Assembly: GCA_004022145.1 (NCBI GenBank)
Contig: RCNU01000007.1
Direction: 5' to 3' (one strand)
From: Paecilomyces variotii
Lineage: Eukaryota
DNA: 64,000 nt
Position 1 is the first letter of the stretch. Each line of letters starts with the position of its first letter. The translations under genes were made by a program, and so were the position numbers. Positions 1 through 11,160 of the stretch are shown one piece after another. Below the pieces are notes generated by a model that was given only the letters and a program-made list of their open reading frames with translations, did no database searches and was not told the origin of the DNA.

Positions 1-1116
1 TCTCCCCACGCTTCAACGGCTCAAAAATAGTTGTCCATAGTTCATTTGCTTCCCCAAGGAAGTAAGTCAAACTAACATCGGCCATGCTGGCATCATCCCC
101 CCCAGCAAGTGTTTCCAGTTGAGAGATAATGTTTTCAAGTCCGAAAGCCTTTCCGGTGGCTTGTGTTGAACCCGCTTCCAGCATAACATTAACGATGTGA
201 ATGTGGAAGTGATAATAAGTTGGTTGATCTGTTATGTTCAGTATGTTTCCAGTGAAGTAGCAAAGATAGATTAACACTCAACGTACAATGAACGTAAAGT
301 TTCAGCTGGTCCTGTTCAAGCTCAGGATACATTTCCACAGTAGCGTCCAGAAGCCTCTGTCTCAAATATCGTAGCCAAGGAATGTGACTCTTCCTCAAGT
401 CACGCAAACTCCATATATCTCGCCTCTGAACTAAAGCAAGTAAATGAAGCGATCCAATGGTCTTGCGGTCCCAATTAAGGTCCGGGAGCATCAAGAAGCC
501 ATCTTCAGGACTATTGCCTGGCTCCTTCAAGATCACGTCTTCTTGTTCCGTTTTTCCTTCTAGGATGTTGAAAATCCAGTTCAGCCTTCCTTCCTCTCGT
601 TGTCTACTCATGTATGGCCTGACGTAATTTTTATAGACCTCTGGGGTCTCGGTGACCATGCGCACAAGCTGAGCGGAGTACTTCTTAATGTGCTTATCTG
701 TGCACGGCCAGATAAGGTTGAGTTTGAGATCCGGAGGTTGGGCGCTTGCAGTATCACCACCAGACGATGCCATATACCAGCGATAAATGTCATTGTCGCC
801 CAAGTTTGTCACCCGTGATATGGCAGCATGGAAAGCTCGCAGGACTTCTACTGATTCGGTAGCGAACACGGCCCGTTCTGCTGTCAGGATGCCCTGCTTG
901 CCCGAAATTGTACCTAGAATAGAAATGCGACGACCATGCTGGTCTGTGCGGTACGAGGATATCAGTTTATCGCGTGTACTAGCGGTATAGTTCTCCTGAG
1001 AGGACGTATATTGCTGCGAAACTCAGAGTGTGAAGGCCAGGGATCGAACCTTGGTTAAGGAGTCTCTCGACCTCGAATTGCGAGATCAGAGCTTCCGGAG
1101 TGGTACCCCCGGCCAT
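1..1116 (-). CDS. DCS1: m7GpppX scavenger mRNA decapping enzyme (DcpS); 3' end runs off the window
   Basis: ATG at 1116 (MAGGTTPEALISQFEVERLL). Exon 2 has LNLIWPCTDKHIKKYS, LPDLNWD and IWSLRDL. After an intron at ~228-284 the HIT-like motif HYQPTYYHFHIH appears. Confidence 0.93.
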
Positions 1117-1864
1117 GTCGAAGGCTTCAAGGTACTACTCACGCTCAGATAAGAGGTATGTTAGAGTTGTGATAAACAAAGCAATTTGTGTCGGCAGTCA
1201 ACTTTCGTCGACTCCAGATTATTTATTGTCGGCAGAATCCAAAGGCGGTCAGGGACGCTAAACTGCGCTGTAAATATATGCCTGTTATCGGCAGTTAAAT
1301 TGTGAAATAGATACACGCCTATCACATAATGCAGGAAAGTATCATGTGTCATATATCGCAGATCTTGCCTATATCGCAATCCTTAGATGTCTAAGAACTG
1401 CCTCCGTAGCTATTCCGGACAACCAGGAATGATTCTGACGGTGGCTATCTGCATCTCCTCTATCTCTTTCGGCGACATCAAAATTGGGCCGTCTTTAGCC
1501 TGCGTTGGGTTCCCGAAGGGAGTTTGTTTTCTGGGTAGGGTTGCGGAACCAGTAAATTTCTTTTTCCATCGCAGTCCGAAGTCTTACCCATAGGCGTCGC
1601 CGTAGTTTTGAGACGCTCACTGGGAAATGTAGCGACATAAACACATGACATAAACACATGCATGTGCTATGAAGTCTTTGCGCCGAGAGGTTCAAGACTC
1701 GAATTGAGAAGCATCGGACCCTGGAAGGCACTAAACGGTCACATCTGTGTTGACCACAATCTAGAAGCGATGCGATTCGCTAGGGTCGTCTGTTATCACG
1801 GCATAACTTCCCCGTAGCTCTATTGTATAGCATGGAAAGCCACTTCCGAGGCAATGGTGACAAT

Positions 1865-2592
1865 TTAGCTGGAAGTGTCTTTGCCCTCTCCCTCAGTCGA
1901 AGCTTCCGGACTCAGGTGCATCTGCCAAATCAGACATCAGACGTCAGCTTCTGCAGCACACGGGTATAGTATAACATCTGGGAGAATTACCGCCTCTGCA
2001 AACTTTATCCACTCTTCTACGCCCTTGACAAAGGGGTCATCTGCTGCTGGCATGATTTCATGGCCCCAGACGACGAACTCGTCGAATGTAGCCTGGGTCT
2101 CAAGAACCTTGACGGGCTCTTCCCGCTCCTCGTCCTGTTCGCCATTCTGCAGTTCCGCCTTTCTGTTCGTCTTCGGATGTAGCACCCGGTCCGTTGGCAT
2201 CGCGACGACACCTAATAACCATATCAGCATCATATGATAGCAACCTAAGTAGAAATGACCATACCTTTATAGCCCTCCGGAATGGCAACACGACGAGCGC
2301 GTAATTTTCGCCCTCTGAAGTGCGCGGTTTGAACATCTCCTTCGTAATTGACATGTGTCAGCAAAGAACGAGTAATGTTCCATGAGAGCGCAGAGCGCAG
2401 AGTCCTAAATTCAAGGCACTCGTGGAGGAGTATGATACCATTTTCATCCACCAGAGGCTTCCAGTAGCGCTCAAGAGATTCTAGAGGACCATCATGATGT
2501 ATGCGACAAGGTAAGATATTCGGAGTAGATGTATTCGAAGACTGCGTGTCCGTCTCTGGGGAGATACTCTGTGCTGATTGAAGTGCAAACAT
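1865..2592 (-). CDS. RNH203: RNase H2 non-catalytic subunit C
   Basis: Spliced pieces NILPCRIHHDGP, AHFRGRKLR...IPEGYKG and ATFDEFVVWGHE...DDPFVKGVEEWIKFAEA|MH; TAA at 1865-1867. Confidence 0.88.
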
Positions 2593-3039
2593 TTCTGCGA
2601 CAATGGAAAGGAACGAAAATGCACTTGTAGGCAGTGTTCGAATAGGTTCTCTTCGATGAATAGCTCGAACTCAGTGTTTCCCAGAATCGGTGTTAGAATG
2701 CTTGAACACGATGTTCTTCGCAGGGTCTTCTGCTCGACGCGACGCGACTACTCGCGTTTAACTACCAATTAAAGTGTGGAGAAATGACCGATAAGGTAAC
2801 GCTTATCAGAAAGTCCTGGTAAAGCAATGTGCAGATTCACTGAAGCTATTTTGCAATTATATCGAGCATTATAGTATGCATTAATGACCTTCCTCCTCCG
2901 ATTATATACACTCATGTAGTACAGACACCGCTATTGATCGAATAGACCAAAGAACCAAAGTCTTGCTAGATTTCGGACACAATTTTCTACACGAAACGTT
3001 GGGGTATTATTCGCATACAGTAATAGTAACACATGTTCT

Positions 3040-4057
3040 TCACCTCTTTCGAGACTTCTTCTTAGGTTTCTTCTTCTTCTTTGCCGGACTGTCCCCGTTT
3101 TCCTTCGCTTCCGTCGTAACCCGGACGGGCCACTTCTTCGCATGCTCCCGCTCGAACGCATCCTTATCTCGTCTGAACAGCATCATTGTTGCTCTGGCAT
3201 CTTCAACACTGGAGTGAGCGCCTTCTTGGATCTTCAAGCCCAGGAGCTCTGAAGCCAGGACCTTTAGACGCGGAGATCCTCCACCTGCGAACTTCCTATA
3301 TGGTGGATGCTTGCTTGTATCTCTTATGTCCCGTTTAGGATGGGGCAGGAGGAGAGCATCGAGATCGTTTCGAACTGCATGGCCGACTAAAACTGTGCCC
3401 TCGAGTATTTTGGCTACATCCCTCTGTACTTCCTCCAGCGAGCGTGCCTCGAGCATATGCTTTGGTAATATTCCGCTGACATGTGTGCGCCAATCGGTGA
3501 CCATTTCTTTGGGTCTAACAAAGGAGTCGTAGACTTGCTCGCCGTTATAGTTGACTATACTTACTCGAGCAAGGACAGAGTCATTGTCAGGATTAGGTCC
3601 GACACCGACCATTTCGCAATCAATCGCGACATATTTTCCTATTTCGACACTATGAAAATAGTCAGAGGCGTTAATGCATATAAGAAGGGCATGACAAAGG
3701 GGAAACAAGGGAAATGACTCACTCGGGAGATAGCCCTGCATTGACTTGTCCATTCCGTGAATCGGCTTTGGGTGTCGAAGTTGCAGAATTCCTCCGCAAC
3801 GCAACCTCTGTGACTGTTTCTCGCACCTCCTTTGCCGCATCCTTTTCGGTTTCCTCCATCGTCCTCTTCCTTTTCAGAGATTTATGCTGTCCCTCAGTTT
3901 TCTTCCCACTGACGCTCTCTGTCCTCCGCCGTTTTACTCCATTTTGGCTGTCACGGTCCGAGGTCTTGCGCTTCGTAGAGGTGGAGACCGAGGGGTTCTC
4001 CTTTTTCAGTTTCTCTTGGAGCTTTTTCCAATTGCTGGATAAAGTTTTGAGCTCCAT
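3040..4057 (-). CDS. REX4: RNA exonuclease 4 (DEDDh family, rRNA processing)
   Basis: N-terminal LSSNWKKLQ; Exo[30 protein letters not shown]; one intron at ~3652-3722. Confidence 0.93.
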
Positions 4058-4441
4058 TCCAAATCGCTTAACGAGAATCTCTTAAGCTTCCATTTTATTG
4101 TCAAGGTGGGACAATAATTCGAAGTTCAATTCTGGTCGGAGATAATTTTCGGAGCGGGATTCTCAATCAAGTGGATGCAAACGCGGCAAACACGATAGCG
4201 GCGATTTTCCGTAGATACTCTTAGAACCCTTTTCCTGTTAGCATTCACCCTCAAAAAGAAACGTGAATACGGAGATGTGTGTTAATATGCCACCAGATTG
4301 ATGAGTATGTCTAGTACTCTTGATACAGTGTAGCTGCTCTAACATGTTGAGCCTGTATGTAGGTTGTTACCTGAACTCTCGTCCAGATACGCCTTTTTGG
4401 ACTATCCATCCCCCTGAAAGTGTTCTTAAAAGCGATTGCCA

Positions 4442-5077
4442 ATGCCTCCCTTGATCTCAGTTTTCTCTGACTCGGAGAGTCCGGAACCTTCACCTATCGA
4501 ATCTTCTGATTCCCCCAGTCCAGAACCTTTACCTGTCGAATCGTCTGATTCCCCCAGTCCAGAAGCTCTATTTGTTGAATCCTCTGGCTCCTCGAGCACC
4601 GGATCTCTATCGGTTGATTTCCATGGTCCCTCTCGCTCTCGGGAGAACTATGATCGGTCGCAGGTAGCTGATCAACCACGTTTGCCCTGGGAATGGAATC
4701 CGAGGGGTAAAACAACAGAACTCTACACCCACACGGCCGTTGGGAAGTGGTGGTTTCATGGGAAGAAGGACATTGAACGTCTCAATCCCAACAAGCGGCG
4801 TGATATTAGCCATATTGGTCGGATTATGGAGACCGAGTTAGGAGAGCAGTTATTTGGGGATAATAGATGCACTGCCTGTCAATTCAACAAACAGGAATGT
4901 TGGGTTTATTCGACAGAGGGGGCTCAGCAGATTAGCCGGCCAGGGGATTCCTGTGCTCGCTGCCGATTGAGTGCTCGTGCTGGGGGCTGCAGTCTATCCA
5001 AGCGACGTAAACGGGTCATTGAGCCACCTGAAACCGGCAATAGGGGGTTTGTGCCTATTCAAAAACGCATGCGTTAG
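4442..5077 (+). CDS. Orphan intronless protein with a 13-aa Ser/Pro repeat and a C-terminal Cys cluster (CxxC-x5-C ... CxxC-x8-C)
   Basis: Open frame of ~211 aa from ATG 4442; CTACQFNKQEC...CARCRLSARAGGC; three copies of a 39-nt repeat near the N-terminus. Confidence 0.55.
   Translation: MPPLISVFSDSESPEPSPIESSDSPSPEPLPVESSDSPSPEALFVESSGSSSTGSLSVDFHGPSRSRENYDRSQVADQPRLPWEWNPRGKTTELYTHTAVGKWWFHGKKDIERLNPNKRRDISHIGRIMETELGEQLFGDNRCTACQFNKQECWVYSTEGAQQISRPGDSCARCRLSARAGGCSLSKRRKRVIEPPETGNRGFVPIQKRMR
4466..4585 (+). repeat. In-frame 39-nt tandem repeat x3 (SDSPSPEPLPVES-like)
   Basis: tctgactcggagagtccggaaccttcacctatcgaatct / tctgattcccccagtccagaacctttacctgtcgaatcg / tctgattcccccagtccagaagctctatttgttgaatcc. 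Confidence 0.85.
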
Positions 5078-5489
5078 ACTCGGATCGTATGACATTTTTG
5101 TCTTATCAATTGCATAAACTTCATGAATTAAGCATCAACTATGTACATACTTGATGGCAAGCGGGTTTGCCATAGGCCGAATGCTTCAGAGTGTCTCAGA
5201 AGGTTTGAACTGCAAGAAATTCCAGGCATCAATCAATATGTTGCGATTTACCAGGTTTATAGTACGTATACTTATCGTACACAGCGTTCGATCAGTCATT
5301 GACCTCACGAGCGAACCGGACCTAGAGCCTGACAACAGAGAAAGTGAATTATATATGAGGACCAAGCACGTTCATCAGTCCTCCCGTCCTAGAGGTCACA
5401 AGTCCCTGCAGATCGATTCAATGCCTTTTTACCTATATTAAACCCCTGACCACCTGAAAAATATATATTTTCTAAATACATATTTTTGA

Positions 5490-5558
5490 CGCAGATTCCG
5501 CATGGCAGATTCCCCTGCAGACCACCGCTGATAACGTTCGCGTTACGAGCACGTAGTG
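5490..5558 (-). mobile_element. Possible CACTA-type transposon terminus (one end only)
   Basis: The minus strand reads CACTACGTGCTCGTAACGCGAACG... from 5558, 4 nt from the start of the rDNA fragment. No partner end was found. Confidence 0.3.
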
Positions 5559-5562
5559 TTGT

Positions 5563-6064
5563 ATCAAGAAAGAGCTCTCAATCTGTCAATCCTTATTTTG
5601 TCTGGACCTGGTGAGTTTCCCCGTGTTGAGTCAAATTAAGCCGCAGGCTCCCAGTTAAAGTCGCAGGGTATTTATGCCTGAACCGTTGGAATTTCTTCCC
5701 ACGCCGGACTATATCTTAAGCTGGTCGACCACCCAACCAACCCACACCCATCTAGTCTCTGAACCTTCCCCATATCCTCAGAGAGGACTGTAGGGGCTTG
5801 GCTGCGGATTGCCCAATCTATCAGCGTTGTAACCATACCCGAGGCAATTAACCTGGCCACCACTATCTTTCGAATCAGTGGCTTGGTAGCTGACAGCTTA
5901 AGGGGTTTCCCGCAATTTGAGTGTGTCGCCCAGAGAGATCCGGACTAGCATTTACTGTTTAGAGGATCACCACATCACCCTTTCGGGCTGCTGTTCGGCG
6001 CAGAGTTGCTGCGGCTGGCAGAAGCAATAATGGTTTACGCCTTGTGGTGCCCTTCCGTCAATTT

Positions 6065-6098
<34 letters not shown>

Positions 6099-6230
6099 AG
6101 AACCCAAAAACTTTGATTTCTCGTAAGGTGCCGAACGGGTCATAATAGAAACACCGTCCGATCCCTAGTCGGCATAGTTTAAGACATCTGATCGTCTTCG
6201 ATCCCCTAACTTTCGTTCCCTGATTAGTGA
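5563..6230 (-). pseudogene. Dispersed internal fragment of 18S (SSU) rDNA with small deletions, interrupted by a group I intron
   Basis: Minus strand: AATCAGGGAACGAAAGTTAGGGGATCGAAGACGATCAGAT...AAACTTAAAGAAATTGACGGAAGGGCACCACAAGGCGT|intron|GGAGCCTGCGGCTTAATTTGACTCAACACGGGGAAACTCACCAGG...GAGAGCTCTTTCTTGAT. The conserved CAGATACCGTCGTAGTCTTAACCATAAAC is reduced to CAGATGTCTTAAAC. No flanking rDNA. Confidence 0.95.
5652..6036 (-). ncRNA. Group I intron (IC1-type) at SSU position S943, 385 nt, no homing endonuclease ORF
   Basis: Inserted after exon ...GGCGU and ends in omega-G. P AAUUGCGGGAAA, Q AAUCCGCAGC, R GUUCAGAGACUAGA, S AAGAUAUAGUCC. IGS GCGCC (5997-6001) pairs with exon GGCGU. Confidence 0.92.
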
Positions 6231-6462
6231 GATCATCTGTGATTGATCTTCTTCCTCATACTTCAATCTAGAAGTTATCGCGTGCTGGAAGATTTGGAAC
6301 ACCTTGTTGGTAGACGTATTGTTCACTCGGACAGGATATCTCTTTTGTGAGATTTGAGTTTATTGATTGCATTGGAAGTGGAAATTCCAGTTTTTCGTGA
6401 CGTTCCTGTCAAATGATGAAATTCCTGCAGATAGGCTAATATATGCACATAAGAAATGATTA

Positions 6463-7883
6463 TTACTCCAACCCAGGAACCTTGAAGTCCTTGTATGTCC
6501 ACTTCTCCGTCGTCTTCCTCTTGGCCTTCTTTGGCTGCGTTACCGGCTTTCGGGACTCTAGCTTTCCATTGACAATCAGATTCCGGAATCTATCATCCAG
6601 AAGATTACCCTCTGGCTTGAGTAGACGAAGCGATTCCTGGAGCTCGTCCGGCAGCACAACTTCTACTGGCTTCTCGGGGACACTGACGGAGTAATTAGCA
6701 CTATAAATATAGGTGTGGTCAGAATATACTCACGGATTCTTCCCAAGAGGTCGTCGACGCAATTTCGTGTCGTCACCTTCATCTGAAGAGTCACCTCCCC
6801 GTTCCTGGCGTTTCCTGCGTTCTTCTTCTTCCTCTTCGACCTTCTTGGCGATGCTCTTGACTTGTTCTGCTTGTTGCTGTCTCTTCTTCATTTGCTCTTC
6901 CCACTTGGCTTTCCTCTCAGCTTCCTTGCGCCTCTTAATCTTGTTCCTCTGAGACTGGGTCTTCCTCTCGGGTCTCTTTTTATTTAACCACTCAGGCTTC
7001 TCGTACTCGCTCTCAAACCCTTCCCATGCACTTTCGTCATCGGATTTCACTTCACCATCGTCACCCTGAGCTTCAGCCTCCGCCCTTTTGCGCTGTCTCT
7101 CCTGCCATCTTTGCTCATCCTCAAGGCGCTTCTTCTCTGCTTCTACCGCCCTTTGGCCTTCCTCTGCCAGGAGTCTATCCCAGTCTTCGAAAGAGGGATT
7201 GTAACTTACTCCTGCGTCAGGTTTCTTCACCGCTGGAACAGGCTTTCCGTTGGCGGTAAGAGAGATTGGTGCCTTCTTTATCGTAGGAGGGGCCACCTTG
7301 GACTTGGGTTTCTCTAGGAAGTCAAATTTTGGGTCCTCATAAGCGGTTGTCTCTTCCGTGTCTGCCCAGGGATCGTAGATCTCATCTCCCTCTTTCTTCG
7401 CATCGGGGTTTCCTTCTCGCGCAACCTGCTTCAAGCGCAGCCATTCCTTGCGACTGACGTAGTCACTCTTGTGCCTCTTCGTCTTTGGCTCAATGACTCC
7501 ATCGGTTACTTTCGAGTTTGCTCGCTTCCTGCTATCAACGGCGGGAATTGCAGATCGCTGGGCGATAATCTCATCGGACTTCAGAGTCTTGTGGTGCTTC
7601 AGGTATGCTTTCCGGATTTCTTCTGAACCGGTAGTATCGATGGTGAAAAGCTCTTCTGAAGGTTTCTCTGCAACGACACCTCTGTGCAAATGGGACTCTG
7701 TAAGCTCAAGAACACCGAAGATCCATTGGGTAAATAAATAGAGCCTTACCCTTTGATTTCTTCTTCCCTCAAGGCCCGGAGACCCTCTTGAACCTCGGAG
7801 ACGTCGACATTCTTCCGCCACGCCTTCTTGCCTTTCCTTGAAGGCTGCTTATATTGGTGAGGAGCCTCCACTGCGGCCGACAT
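6463..7883 (-). CDS. NOP53: Ribosome biogenesis protein Nop53 (60S; GLTSCR2 family)
   Basis: QPSRKGKKAWRKNVD, LFTIDTTG (arch-interacting motif), SYNPSFEDW, and C-terminal LRLLKPEGNLLDDRFRNL...KWTYKDF; 2 introns. Confidence 0.92.
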
Positions 7884-8621
7884 GTTGACAGTTATCCCAG
7901 TTCAGATTATGACTGGGCTTTTGATTGTTCAACCGATGCTTTTTTTGAGAGTCGAAAATCCAAAAATTCTGGACCGCCTAGCGCGGGGAGGACGCTAGTG
8001 CGGCTATCGCACCAATAAGCGCGTTGGTCTGGATCTTTATCAGCTTCTGATCAAACTGCGATTTCAGTATCATCCTCAATAGAGATACAAGCGCTCGCAT
8101 TTAACATTTCCTTTCTGAGTCTGTGATACGTGGAGGAACTCTGTGAGCGCTATGGTAATCTGCAATATCTTGTCTACCTCCTCACTGAAAATGGGCAGTT
8201 TGGGCCGGGTATCTACGCCTTCGCTATGAGTTATATTTCCCAGACAGATAACAAGCATCTCCATTCCATCAGAGGACGTACTTTTCTCATATTGATGTCA
8301 AGAAAGCCCTGTAGACCTGAAATCAATAGAAGATTCGCCAATAAATTTAGTATTCGTAGCTGACGTTCATTGGTCGATCAGCGCAAACGCGACGGCCAAG
8401 TTGGTCTGTATCGCCACCCGCAGCGCTTAACCCTGCATGGAAGCGCGTTCGTCTGCCTTTGCTCAAAACGTCAATCAGTCACTCATACCTTGAGTGAGCT
8501 CCGTCCATTCTTTAGCCGTGGTGCTTTCATACCTTTTCTGCAGATTCGCATAGTTCCTGTGTTCTTATCTTTTTGTCTTTCTATCAGCTTCAGCTGGTGT
8601 CTTCACCAGAGACCCTGCGCC

Positions 8622-11160
<2,539 letters not shown>

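Follow-up and report, generated by a model that had tools for sequence, protein, structure and literature searches.

A 64-kb stretch of Paecilomyces variotii DNA (64,000 nucleotides, in the following called the window) carries, in the spacer that separates two converging reading frames at their 3' ends, a short piece of 18S rDNA that is interrupted by a complete group I intron. We regard this piece as a young, inert and non-functional fragment of rDNA that was captured as DNA, i.e., as a truncated rRNA pseudogene or 'orphon', and assign to this reading a probability of about 0.7. The mechanism of capture, the youth of the copy and its inertness are what we infer, and there is no indication that possible self-splicing of the intron matters to the cell. 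The locus is a further case of a known kind of ectopic rDNA, and its noteworthy property is that the group I intron within it is intact.

The rDNA Fragment and Its Surroundings

The block comprises 663 nt and runs from 6225 to 5563 on the minus strand. It consists of a 5' exon fragment of 189 nt (6037..6225), identified as 18S rDNA by Rfam and by alignment and carrying one 9-nt and one 6-nt deletion, an IC1-like group I intron of 385 nt with 51% GC (5652..6036), and a 3' exon fragment of 89 nt derived from 18S rDNA (5563..5651), in which the homology ends at 5563. An earlier reading of the same DNA from its letters only (the sequence-only reading) had described about 280 nt of minus-strand SSU rDNA split by a 385-nt intron; direct reading gives 189 nt and 89 nt for the two exon parts.

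In Rfam the flanks of the intron match eukaryotic SSU rRNA at 66.5 bits, and two further short SSU pieces, at 6069-6096 and 5562-5595, reach 28-29 bits each, which in both cases is below the gathering score. An extension of the Rfam SSU match to 6483 was dismissed as low-probability padding, since neither alignment nor BLAST shows homology past 6237. When a complete environmental 18S gene (L079, see below) is used as BLAST probe against the whole window, a single rDNA-like stretch is found, 6237..5563, and this full-length genuine 18S reveals no other 18S-like stretch in the 64 kb. The homology is sharp at both edges, with a clear start at 6225 and an abrupt stop at 5563. At the 5' junction (6226..6237, minus strand), where the BLAST alignment reaches 6237, the 11 flanking bases before 6225 fit the rDNA expected to precede it at 8 positions. 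Judged from the bases themselves, such a partial match may reflect imperfect microhomology used in the joining, or mutation associated with the junction.

Only 278 nt of the approximately 1800 nt of an 18S gene are present, and 15 nt are missing from a conserved helix. The copy at 6225..5563 is unable to encode functional rRNA.

Upstream of the fragment and on the same strand lies the gene for Nop53, a protein of 60S biogenesis, in two exons (6463..7821, minus strand; PF07767, E values 6.6e-76 and 1.2e-15). Its stop codon, 6465..6463, is located 237 nt from the fragment, in good accordance with the distance of about 230 nt on the same strand that had been given before. In the 3' region of Nop53 there is an AATAAA hexamer (6359..6364, minus strand), some 98 nt past the stop codon, from which another 134 nt or so lead to the fragment. 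The opposite flank holds a convergent frame of 213 amino acids without Pfam match (4436..5077, plus strand), whose stop codon is 486 nt from the fragment. This frame has a Ser/Pro-rich, repeated N-terminal part and a Cys-rich C-terminal part, and it may be a real lineage-specific gene. Farther from the fragment follows a gene for an RNase_T exonuclease, REX4-like (3040-3840). The sequence-only reading had placed the fragment in a REX4-NOP53 interval; both genes are indeed present, but the REX4-like gene is not the immediate neighbour. From the position of the 213-aa frame between this gene and the fragment follows that the fragment is flanked by the 3' ends of two convergent frames. The spacer between these ends is 1.4 kb long and would be about 0.7 kb without the insert.

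Within the window, the fragment thus lies outside the rDNA array and among unrelated genes, and its neighbours are ordinary single-copy genes: Nop53, the RNase_T exonuclease, DcpS, RNase H2 subunit C and Cef1. The earlier claim of an ectopic, intron-bearing, rDNA-derived copy among single-copy genes is borne out by Rfam, alignment, BLAST and the identity of these neighbours. It may be added that five of the genes within 11 kb (189-11160) belong to RNA metabolism, namely those for DcpS, RNase H2 subunit C, the RNase_T exonuclease, Nop53 and a Cef1-type Myb splicing factor, a clustering that is probably due to chance.

Structure of the Intron

Rfam detects a full-length group I intron at 5685-5986 (minus strand), which covers positions 1-253 of 253 of model RF00028 with 95.5 bits and an E value of 2.3e-23. 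The gathering score of this model is 50 bits, so that the covariance-model check proposed in the sequence-only reading comes out clearly on the side of a group I intron. The features of subgroup IC1 are present, i.e., an extended P5abc, AAU in J3/4 and GC/GU in P6, and the insertion is at the same exon position as in S943 introns, where we take the site number 943 from the literature and from the earlier note.

The internal guide sequence (5997..6005, minus strand) begins with CUCU (6005..6002), the partner in P10, and continues with GCGCC (6001..5997), the partner in P1. In P1, the end of the 5' exon, GGCGU, pairs with GCGCC, which gives a U.G pair at the 5' splice site, and in P10, CUCU pairs with GGAG, the first four bases of the 3' exon. 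The core helices extend over 5743..5925 (minus strand), with P3 formed by 5925-5919 and 5749-5743, P4 by 5914-5909 and 5808-5803, P5 together with P5abc in 5904-5812, and P6 in 5802-5763. The P7 strands (within 5707..5757, minus strand) are GACUA at 5757..5753 and UAGUC at 5711..5707, and they enclose the 3' strand of P3 and P8 (5742-5719). All P3-P8 core pairs, including the P3/P7 pseudoknot, are standard in the window copy. The P9 hairpin with its GAAA loop (5685..5702, minus strand) has a basal G.A mismatch, and this is the only broken consensus pair. The terminal G at the 3' splice site, omega-G, is at 5652 (minus strand). P1 with its U.G pair, P10, P7, omega-G and the P/Q/R/S core had all been described before, and direct reading together with alignment reproduces the description.

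If the block 6225..5563 were transcribed, the RNA would accordingly be expected to hold all local needs for self-splicing, namely P1, P10, the core and omega-G. A homing-endonuclease gene is ruled out, since 385 nt leave no room for one. The folding energy of the single sequence (z = -0.35) gives no signal in either direction.

Related Introns and Covariation

Homologues were sought in metagenome contigs with a conserved 18-base exon motif followed by any base except G, and at least 108 loci were found. Among the 108 listed, 97 are 18S-like and 11 are without 18S similarity. Two of the latter, L039 and L077, are situated inside contigs of 411 kb and 497 kb, respectively, and were considered as further ectopic copies; they have no SSU similarity and were rejected, and all 11 are chance matches in a very large collection. 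An exact 28-mer from the P5b region of the window intron has no match in the metagenome contigs.

The closest introns among the matches listed are L079, L043, L053 and L051, which occupy the same position inside genuine environmental 18S genes. Their identities to the window intron are 84% over 323 aligned nt (L079), 83% over 342 nt (L043), 81% over 297 nt (L053) and 78% over 367 nt (L051). The first of these is situated in a complete 18S gene (Rfam model positions 1-1831). With RF00028, the four array introns score between 88 and 112.5 bits, an interval in which the 95.5 bits of the window copy fall.

A further metagenome contig (L033, 735-2071) contains two inverted and nearly identical 18S pieces with an S943 intron, each with about 330 nt of 18S upstream and 74 nt downstream of the intron and with non-18S sequence on both sides. 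It was set aside as an ectopic precedent, because it looks like a fold-back contig of intron-rich rDNA; it may also be a real palindromic ectopic copy.

The window copy and 19 other introns, picked for their similarity to it, were aligned (alignment A1, 20 introns). In this alignment the guide sequence covaries with the exon, GGCGU occurring with GCGCC and GGAGU with GCUCC. The covarying P1 pair (columns 6 and 54) is CG in 12 sequences, AU in seven and GU in one. The CUCU/GGAG pairing of P10 is found in 19 of the 20 introns, and the terminal G in all 20. RNAalifold recovers P1, P3, P4-P6, P5abc, P8 and P9, with compensatory change in 46 of 79 pairs. P7 covaries as well, with GACUU facing AAGUC in five of the 20 sequences, which is a compensatory change. 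Another UAGUC word, located upstream in the P2.1 region (5945-5939, minus strand), is also complementary to the 5' strand of P7 (5757-5753); it is probably not the partner, as it shows no covariation, whereas the true partner does.

In nearly all 20 introns, RNAalifold also pairs columns 62-69 of A1 with columns 638-644, corresponding in the window to about 5991-5984 with 5653-5647, that is, the segment just after the guide with the last bases of the intron and the first bases of the 3' exon. As modelled, this pairing may be an alternative one, or a contact resembling P9.0/P10.

Exon Lesions and the Extent of Decay

Compared with genuine rDNA, the 5' exon has lost 9 nt between 6186 and 6185 and a further 6 nt at about 6179/6178, the two deletions being 7 nt apart. 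The placement of the 6-nt deletion is ambiguous by 3 nt due to a TAA repeat, and its position between TAA repeats is of the kind that slippage or microhomology joining would produce. The deleted segment is nearly invariant in seven genuine rDNAs, two of which differ there, by one and by three bases.

Outside the two deletions the exons are virtually undamaged, as measured against genuine environmental rDNA. The remaining differences of the 5' exon all fall in one variable hairpin: one mismatch and one 1-nt indel to L079, and two mismatches to L051 and to L053. The 3' exon has no mismatch in its 89 nt to L079, L051, L053 or L043. At positions that are conserved in the nearest genuine rDNAs, no substitution is found in the exons outside the two deletions. 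From the lack of substitutions in approximately 260 conserved exon sites follows, by a three-over-n bound, that the neutral divergence since insertion would be below about 1%.

The intron shows the same absence of decay. The other 19 introns show a conservation of at least 85% at 155 columns, of which the window copy departs at none and the others at between one and 24, and in a tree of the introns the terminal branch of the window copy is 0.044, to be compared with a median of 0.36; A1 was chosen by similarity to the window intron, and both the low departure count and the short branch are thereby favoured for this copy. It breaks one of 73 consensus pairs, while the array copies break between 0 and 10, in a count that leaves out P7 and the six RNAalifold pairs that join the segment after the guide to the region of the 3' splice site.

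The sequence-only reading had contrasted an undamaged ribozyme core with an exon that carries two deletions. Both observations stand, but the contrast fails as a sign of maintenance, in that the exons are otherwise free of substitutions at conserved positions. Most simply, exon and intron have remained unmutated to the same degree. When the copy is young and its exons unsubstituted, an intact intron is the neutral expectation, and selection need not be invoked. Instead of youth, occasional gene conversion from the array could have kept the exons free of substitutions.

Origin of the Fragment

According to the reading that we prefer, a 678-nt piece of an 18S gene that already contained the S943 group I intron would have been copied or captured as DNA, and inserted into the spacer that Nop53 and the convergent frame face with their 3' ends, most likely when a chromosome break was repaired by end joining. 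Both small deletions would date from the insertion or from a later time, and the ribozyme would be intact because there has been too little time for mutations, and not because it is maintained.

Two other routes to an rRNA pseudogene leave marks that can be looked for. Inspection of both ends of the block revealed neither a poly(A) or A-rich tract at 5563 nor a direct repeat flanking the block, so that nothing marks retroposition; with no 3' poly(A) tract and no target-site duplication at 5563 and 6225, a processed (retroposed) pseudogene was rejected. As for repeat-induced point mutation (RIP), the TpA/ApT index of the block is 0.84 and the (CpA+TpG)/(ApC+GpT) index is 1.15, both on the non-RIP side of the usual values. 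With negative indices and no transitions at conserved exon positions, a pseudogene generated by RIP was rejected as well. The piece is, with its 663 nt, also shorter than the length of about 1 kb quoted for RIP of unlinked duplicates in PMC5555474.

Concerning the source of the DNA, the fragment could be a fossil, i.e., the last copy of an S943 intron that has since been lost from the array, or a copy from another fungus. Strains of a single species can differ in whether they carry an S943 intron, as exemplified by Bdo.S943, which PMC3699495 reports in 11 of 37 strains of Botryosphaeria dothidea, and the nearest intron among the matches listed is only 84% identical to that of the window, with no array copy from the same species seen there. 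The metagenome collection is environmental, however, and the absence of a close match among the matches listed means little; exons without substitutions speak for a recent source, and the variable hairpin, which is close to those of L079, L051 and L053, agrees with a donor from the same broad lineage. By its 18S signatures the exon would tentatively be placed with a Pezizomycotina mould of the Eurotiales type. We consider a fossil or foreign copy unlikely. An RNA template must be weighed in addition, since the presence of the intron means that the template was either DNA or an unspliced precursor, and these two cannot be separated by the sequence alone. Reverse transcription of a fragment of unspliced pre-rRNA, followed by insertion, could also account for the small internal deletions, which can come from template switching. 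Against this route, neither a poly(A) tract nor a target-site duplication is present, and self-splicing group I introns usually leave their precursor fast (see also PMC8527467). The probability of the RNA route is small. That the locus is an assembly chimera, with rDNA reads misplaced into a single-copy region, is a natural suspicion, rDNA being a classic source of misassembly. Yet both ends of the block run into unique sequence within one 64-kb window that shows a normal convergent gene pair here, and the loss of 15 bases from a nearly invariant segment is not expected of functional array copies. In 14 sequencing runs of DNA or of unknown kind, from isolates and food-fermentation metagenomes of at least eight studies, a fraction of 0.93-0.98 of the sampled words from the 3.6 kb of window 4300-7900 was found; this is not decisive, since the array or rRNA may also supply words that belong to the insert, and the word shares of the runs therefore prove neither junctions nor expression. 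A chimera is, in our judgement, exceedingly improbable.

The remaining alternative does not concern how the fragment arose, but what it does. It states that the fragment is transcribed by Pol II, by read-through from Nop53 or from a cryptic start, and that the ribozyme splices itself out of the transcript, whether or not this regulates Nop53 or ribosome biogenesis. In favour of read-through, the fragment shares its strand with Nop53 and is located 237 nt after the stop codon of that gene, and all local elements for both splicing steps are intact. In six metatranscriptome runs, 0.32-0.61 of the words from positions 4300-7900 of the window are found, a share that is compatible with the insert being either present or absent. 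Against this, the Nop53 stop codon is followed, ahead of the fragment, by the AATAAA at 6364-6359, which suggests, as a weak argument, that most Nop53 transcripts end before the fragment is reached. Furthermore, the intactness of the ribozyme is explained by youth, in vitro self-splicing fails for some of the group I introns of fungal rDNA (PMC8527467), and the adjacency to a gene of ribosome biogenesis can be due to chance. Transcription with self-splicing is distinctly unlikely on this balance. Little probability is also given to a wider proposal, in which the fragment is co-transcribed by Pol II with or downstream of Nop53 and self-splices there; if true, no natural nuclear group I intron before it would have been shown to act elsewhere than in a Pol I rRNA gene. 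In this proposal the fragment could also be an off-array store of the intron, from which gene conversion returns it to an array that has none. We therefore retain the recent capture of an inert piece of rDNA as the best explanation of the locus.

Significance and Comparison with Known Systems

Nuclear group I introns have been stated to be confined to rDNA (PMC9223047). The present locus shows a trivial way round this rule, in that stray rDNA can bring a complete ribozyme into Pol II territory, and it makes it possible to ask, on natural material, whether a ribozyme of this kind folds and splices away from the nucleolus. It is, moreover, a datable marker for the capture of an rDNA fragment in a food-fermentation mould, and it carries a warning, since PCR of 18S or of the intron and metabarcoding in this species could amplify the deletion-marked copy. 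In the open-access literature, no description of an intron-bearing ectopic rDNA fragment was found. Ectopic rRNA pseudogenes have already been described, and the surprise of the window copy is thereby lowered.

The nearest relatives of the intron are the S943 IC1 introns in the 18S genes of Pezizomycotina, for which Bdo.S943 of Botryosphaeria dothidea can serve as example. This intron is described in PMC3699495 as an IC1 intron of 366 nt with AAU in J3/4, GC/GU in P6 and an extended P5a-c. Introns of this type are, like the window intron, inserted after an exon motif that ends in GGCGU or GGAGU. The two also share a similar size, a U at the 5' splice site, a terminal G, the P/Q/R/S elements, AAU in J3/4, a P6 that starts with GC/GU, the extended P5a-c and the lack of an endonuclease gene. 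They differ in that the window intron is located outside a functional rRNA gene, with 189 and 89 nt of 18S on its two sides and then unrelated single-copy DNA.

Ectopic rRNA pseudogenes are known from filamentous ascomycetes (Li et al. 2017, PMC5555474), and copies outside the NOR of Neurospora are cited in the same paper. These pseudogenes and the window copy are alike in being derived from rDNA, in having escaped from the array and in being unable to give functional rRNA. The published pseudogenes are long paralogs with 13-28% RIP-type transitions, from which introns were removed before analysis, whereas the window copy has 663 nt, no RIP signature, no substitutions at conserved positions and an intact intron.

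Engineered group I introns have been expressed from Pol II genes in artificial constructs (PMC3151216), and they are comparable to the window locus only if read-through occurs. Dispersed fragments that derive from rDNA have been classed with junk DNA (Robicheau et al. 2017, cited in PMC10946416).

Stray DNA can be captured at repaired chromosome breaks, as in NUMT-like insertions. Dispersed rDNA fragments and captures of this type share with the window copy that a short piece of an abundant DNA, sharply bounded and free of transposon marks, is found in an intergenic spacer. What distinguishes the window copy, for which the capture mechanism is a presumed one, is the complete ribozyme that it contains.
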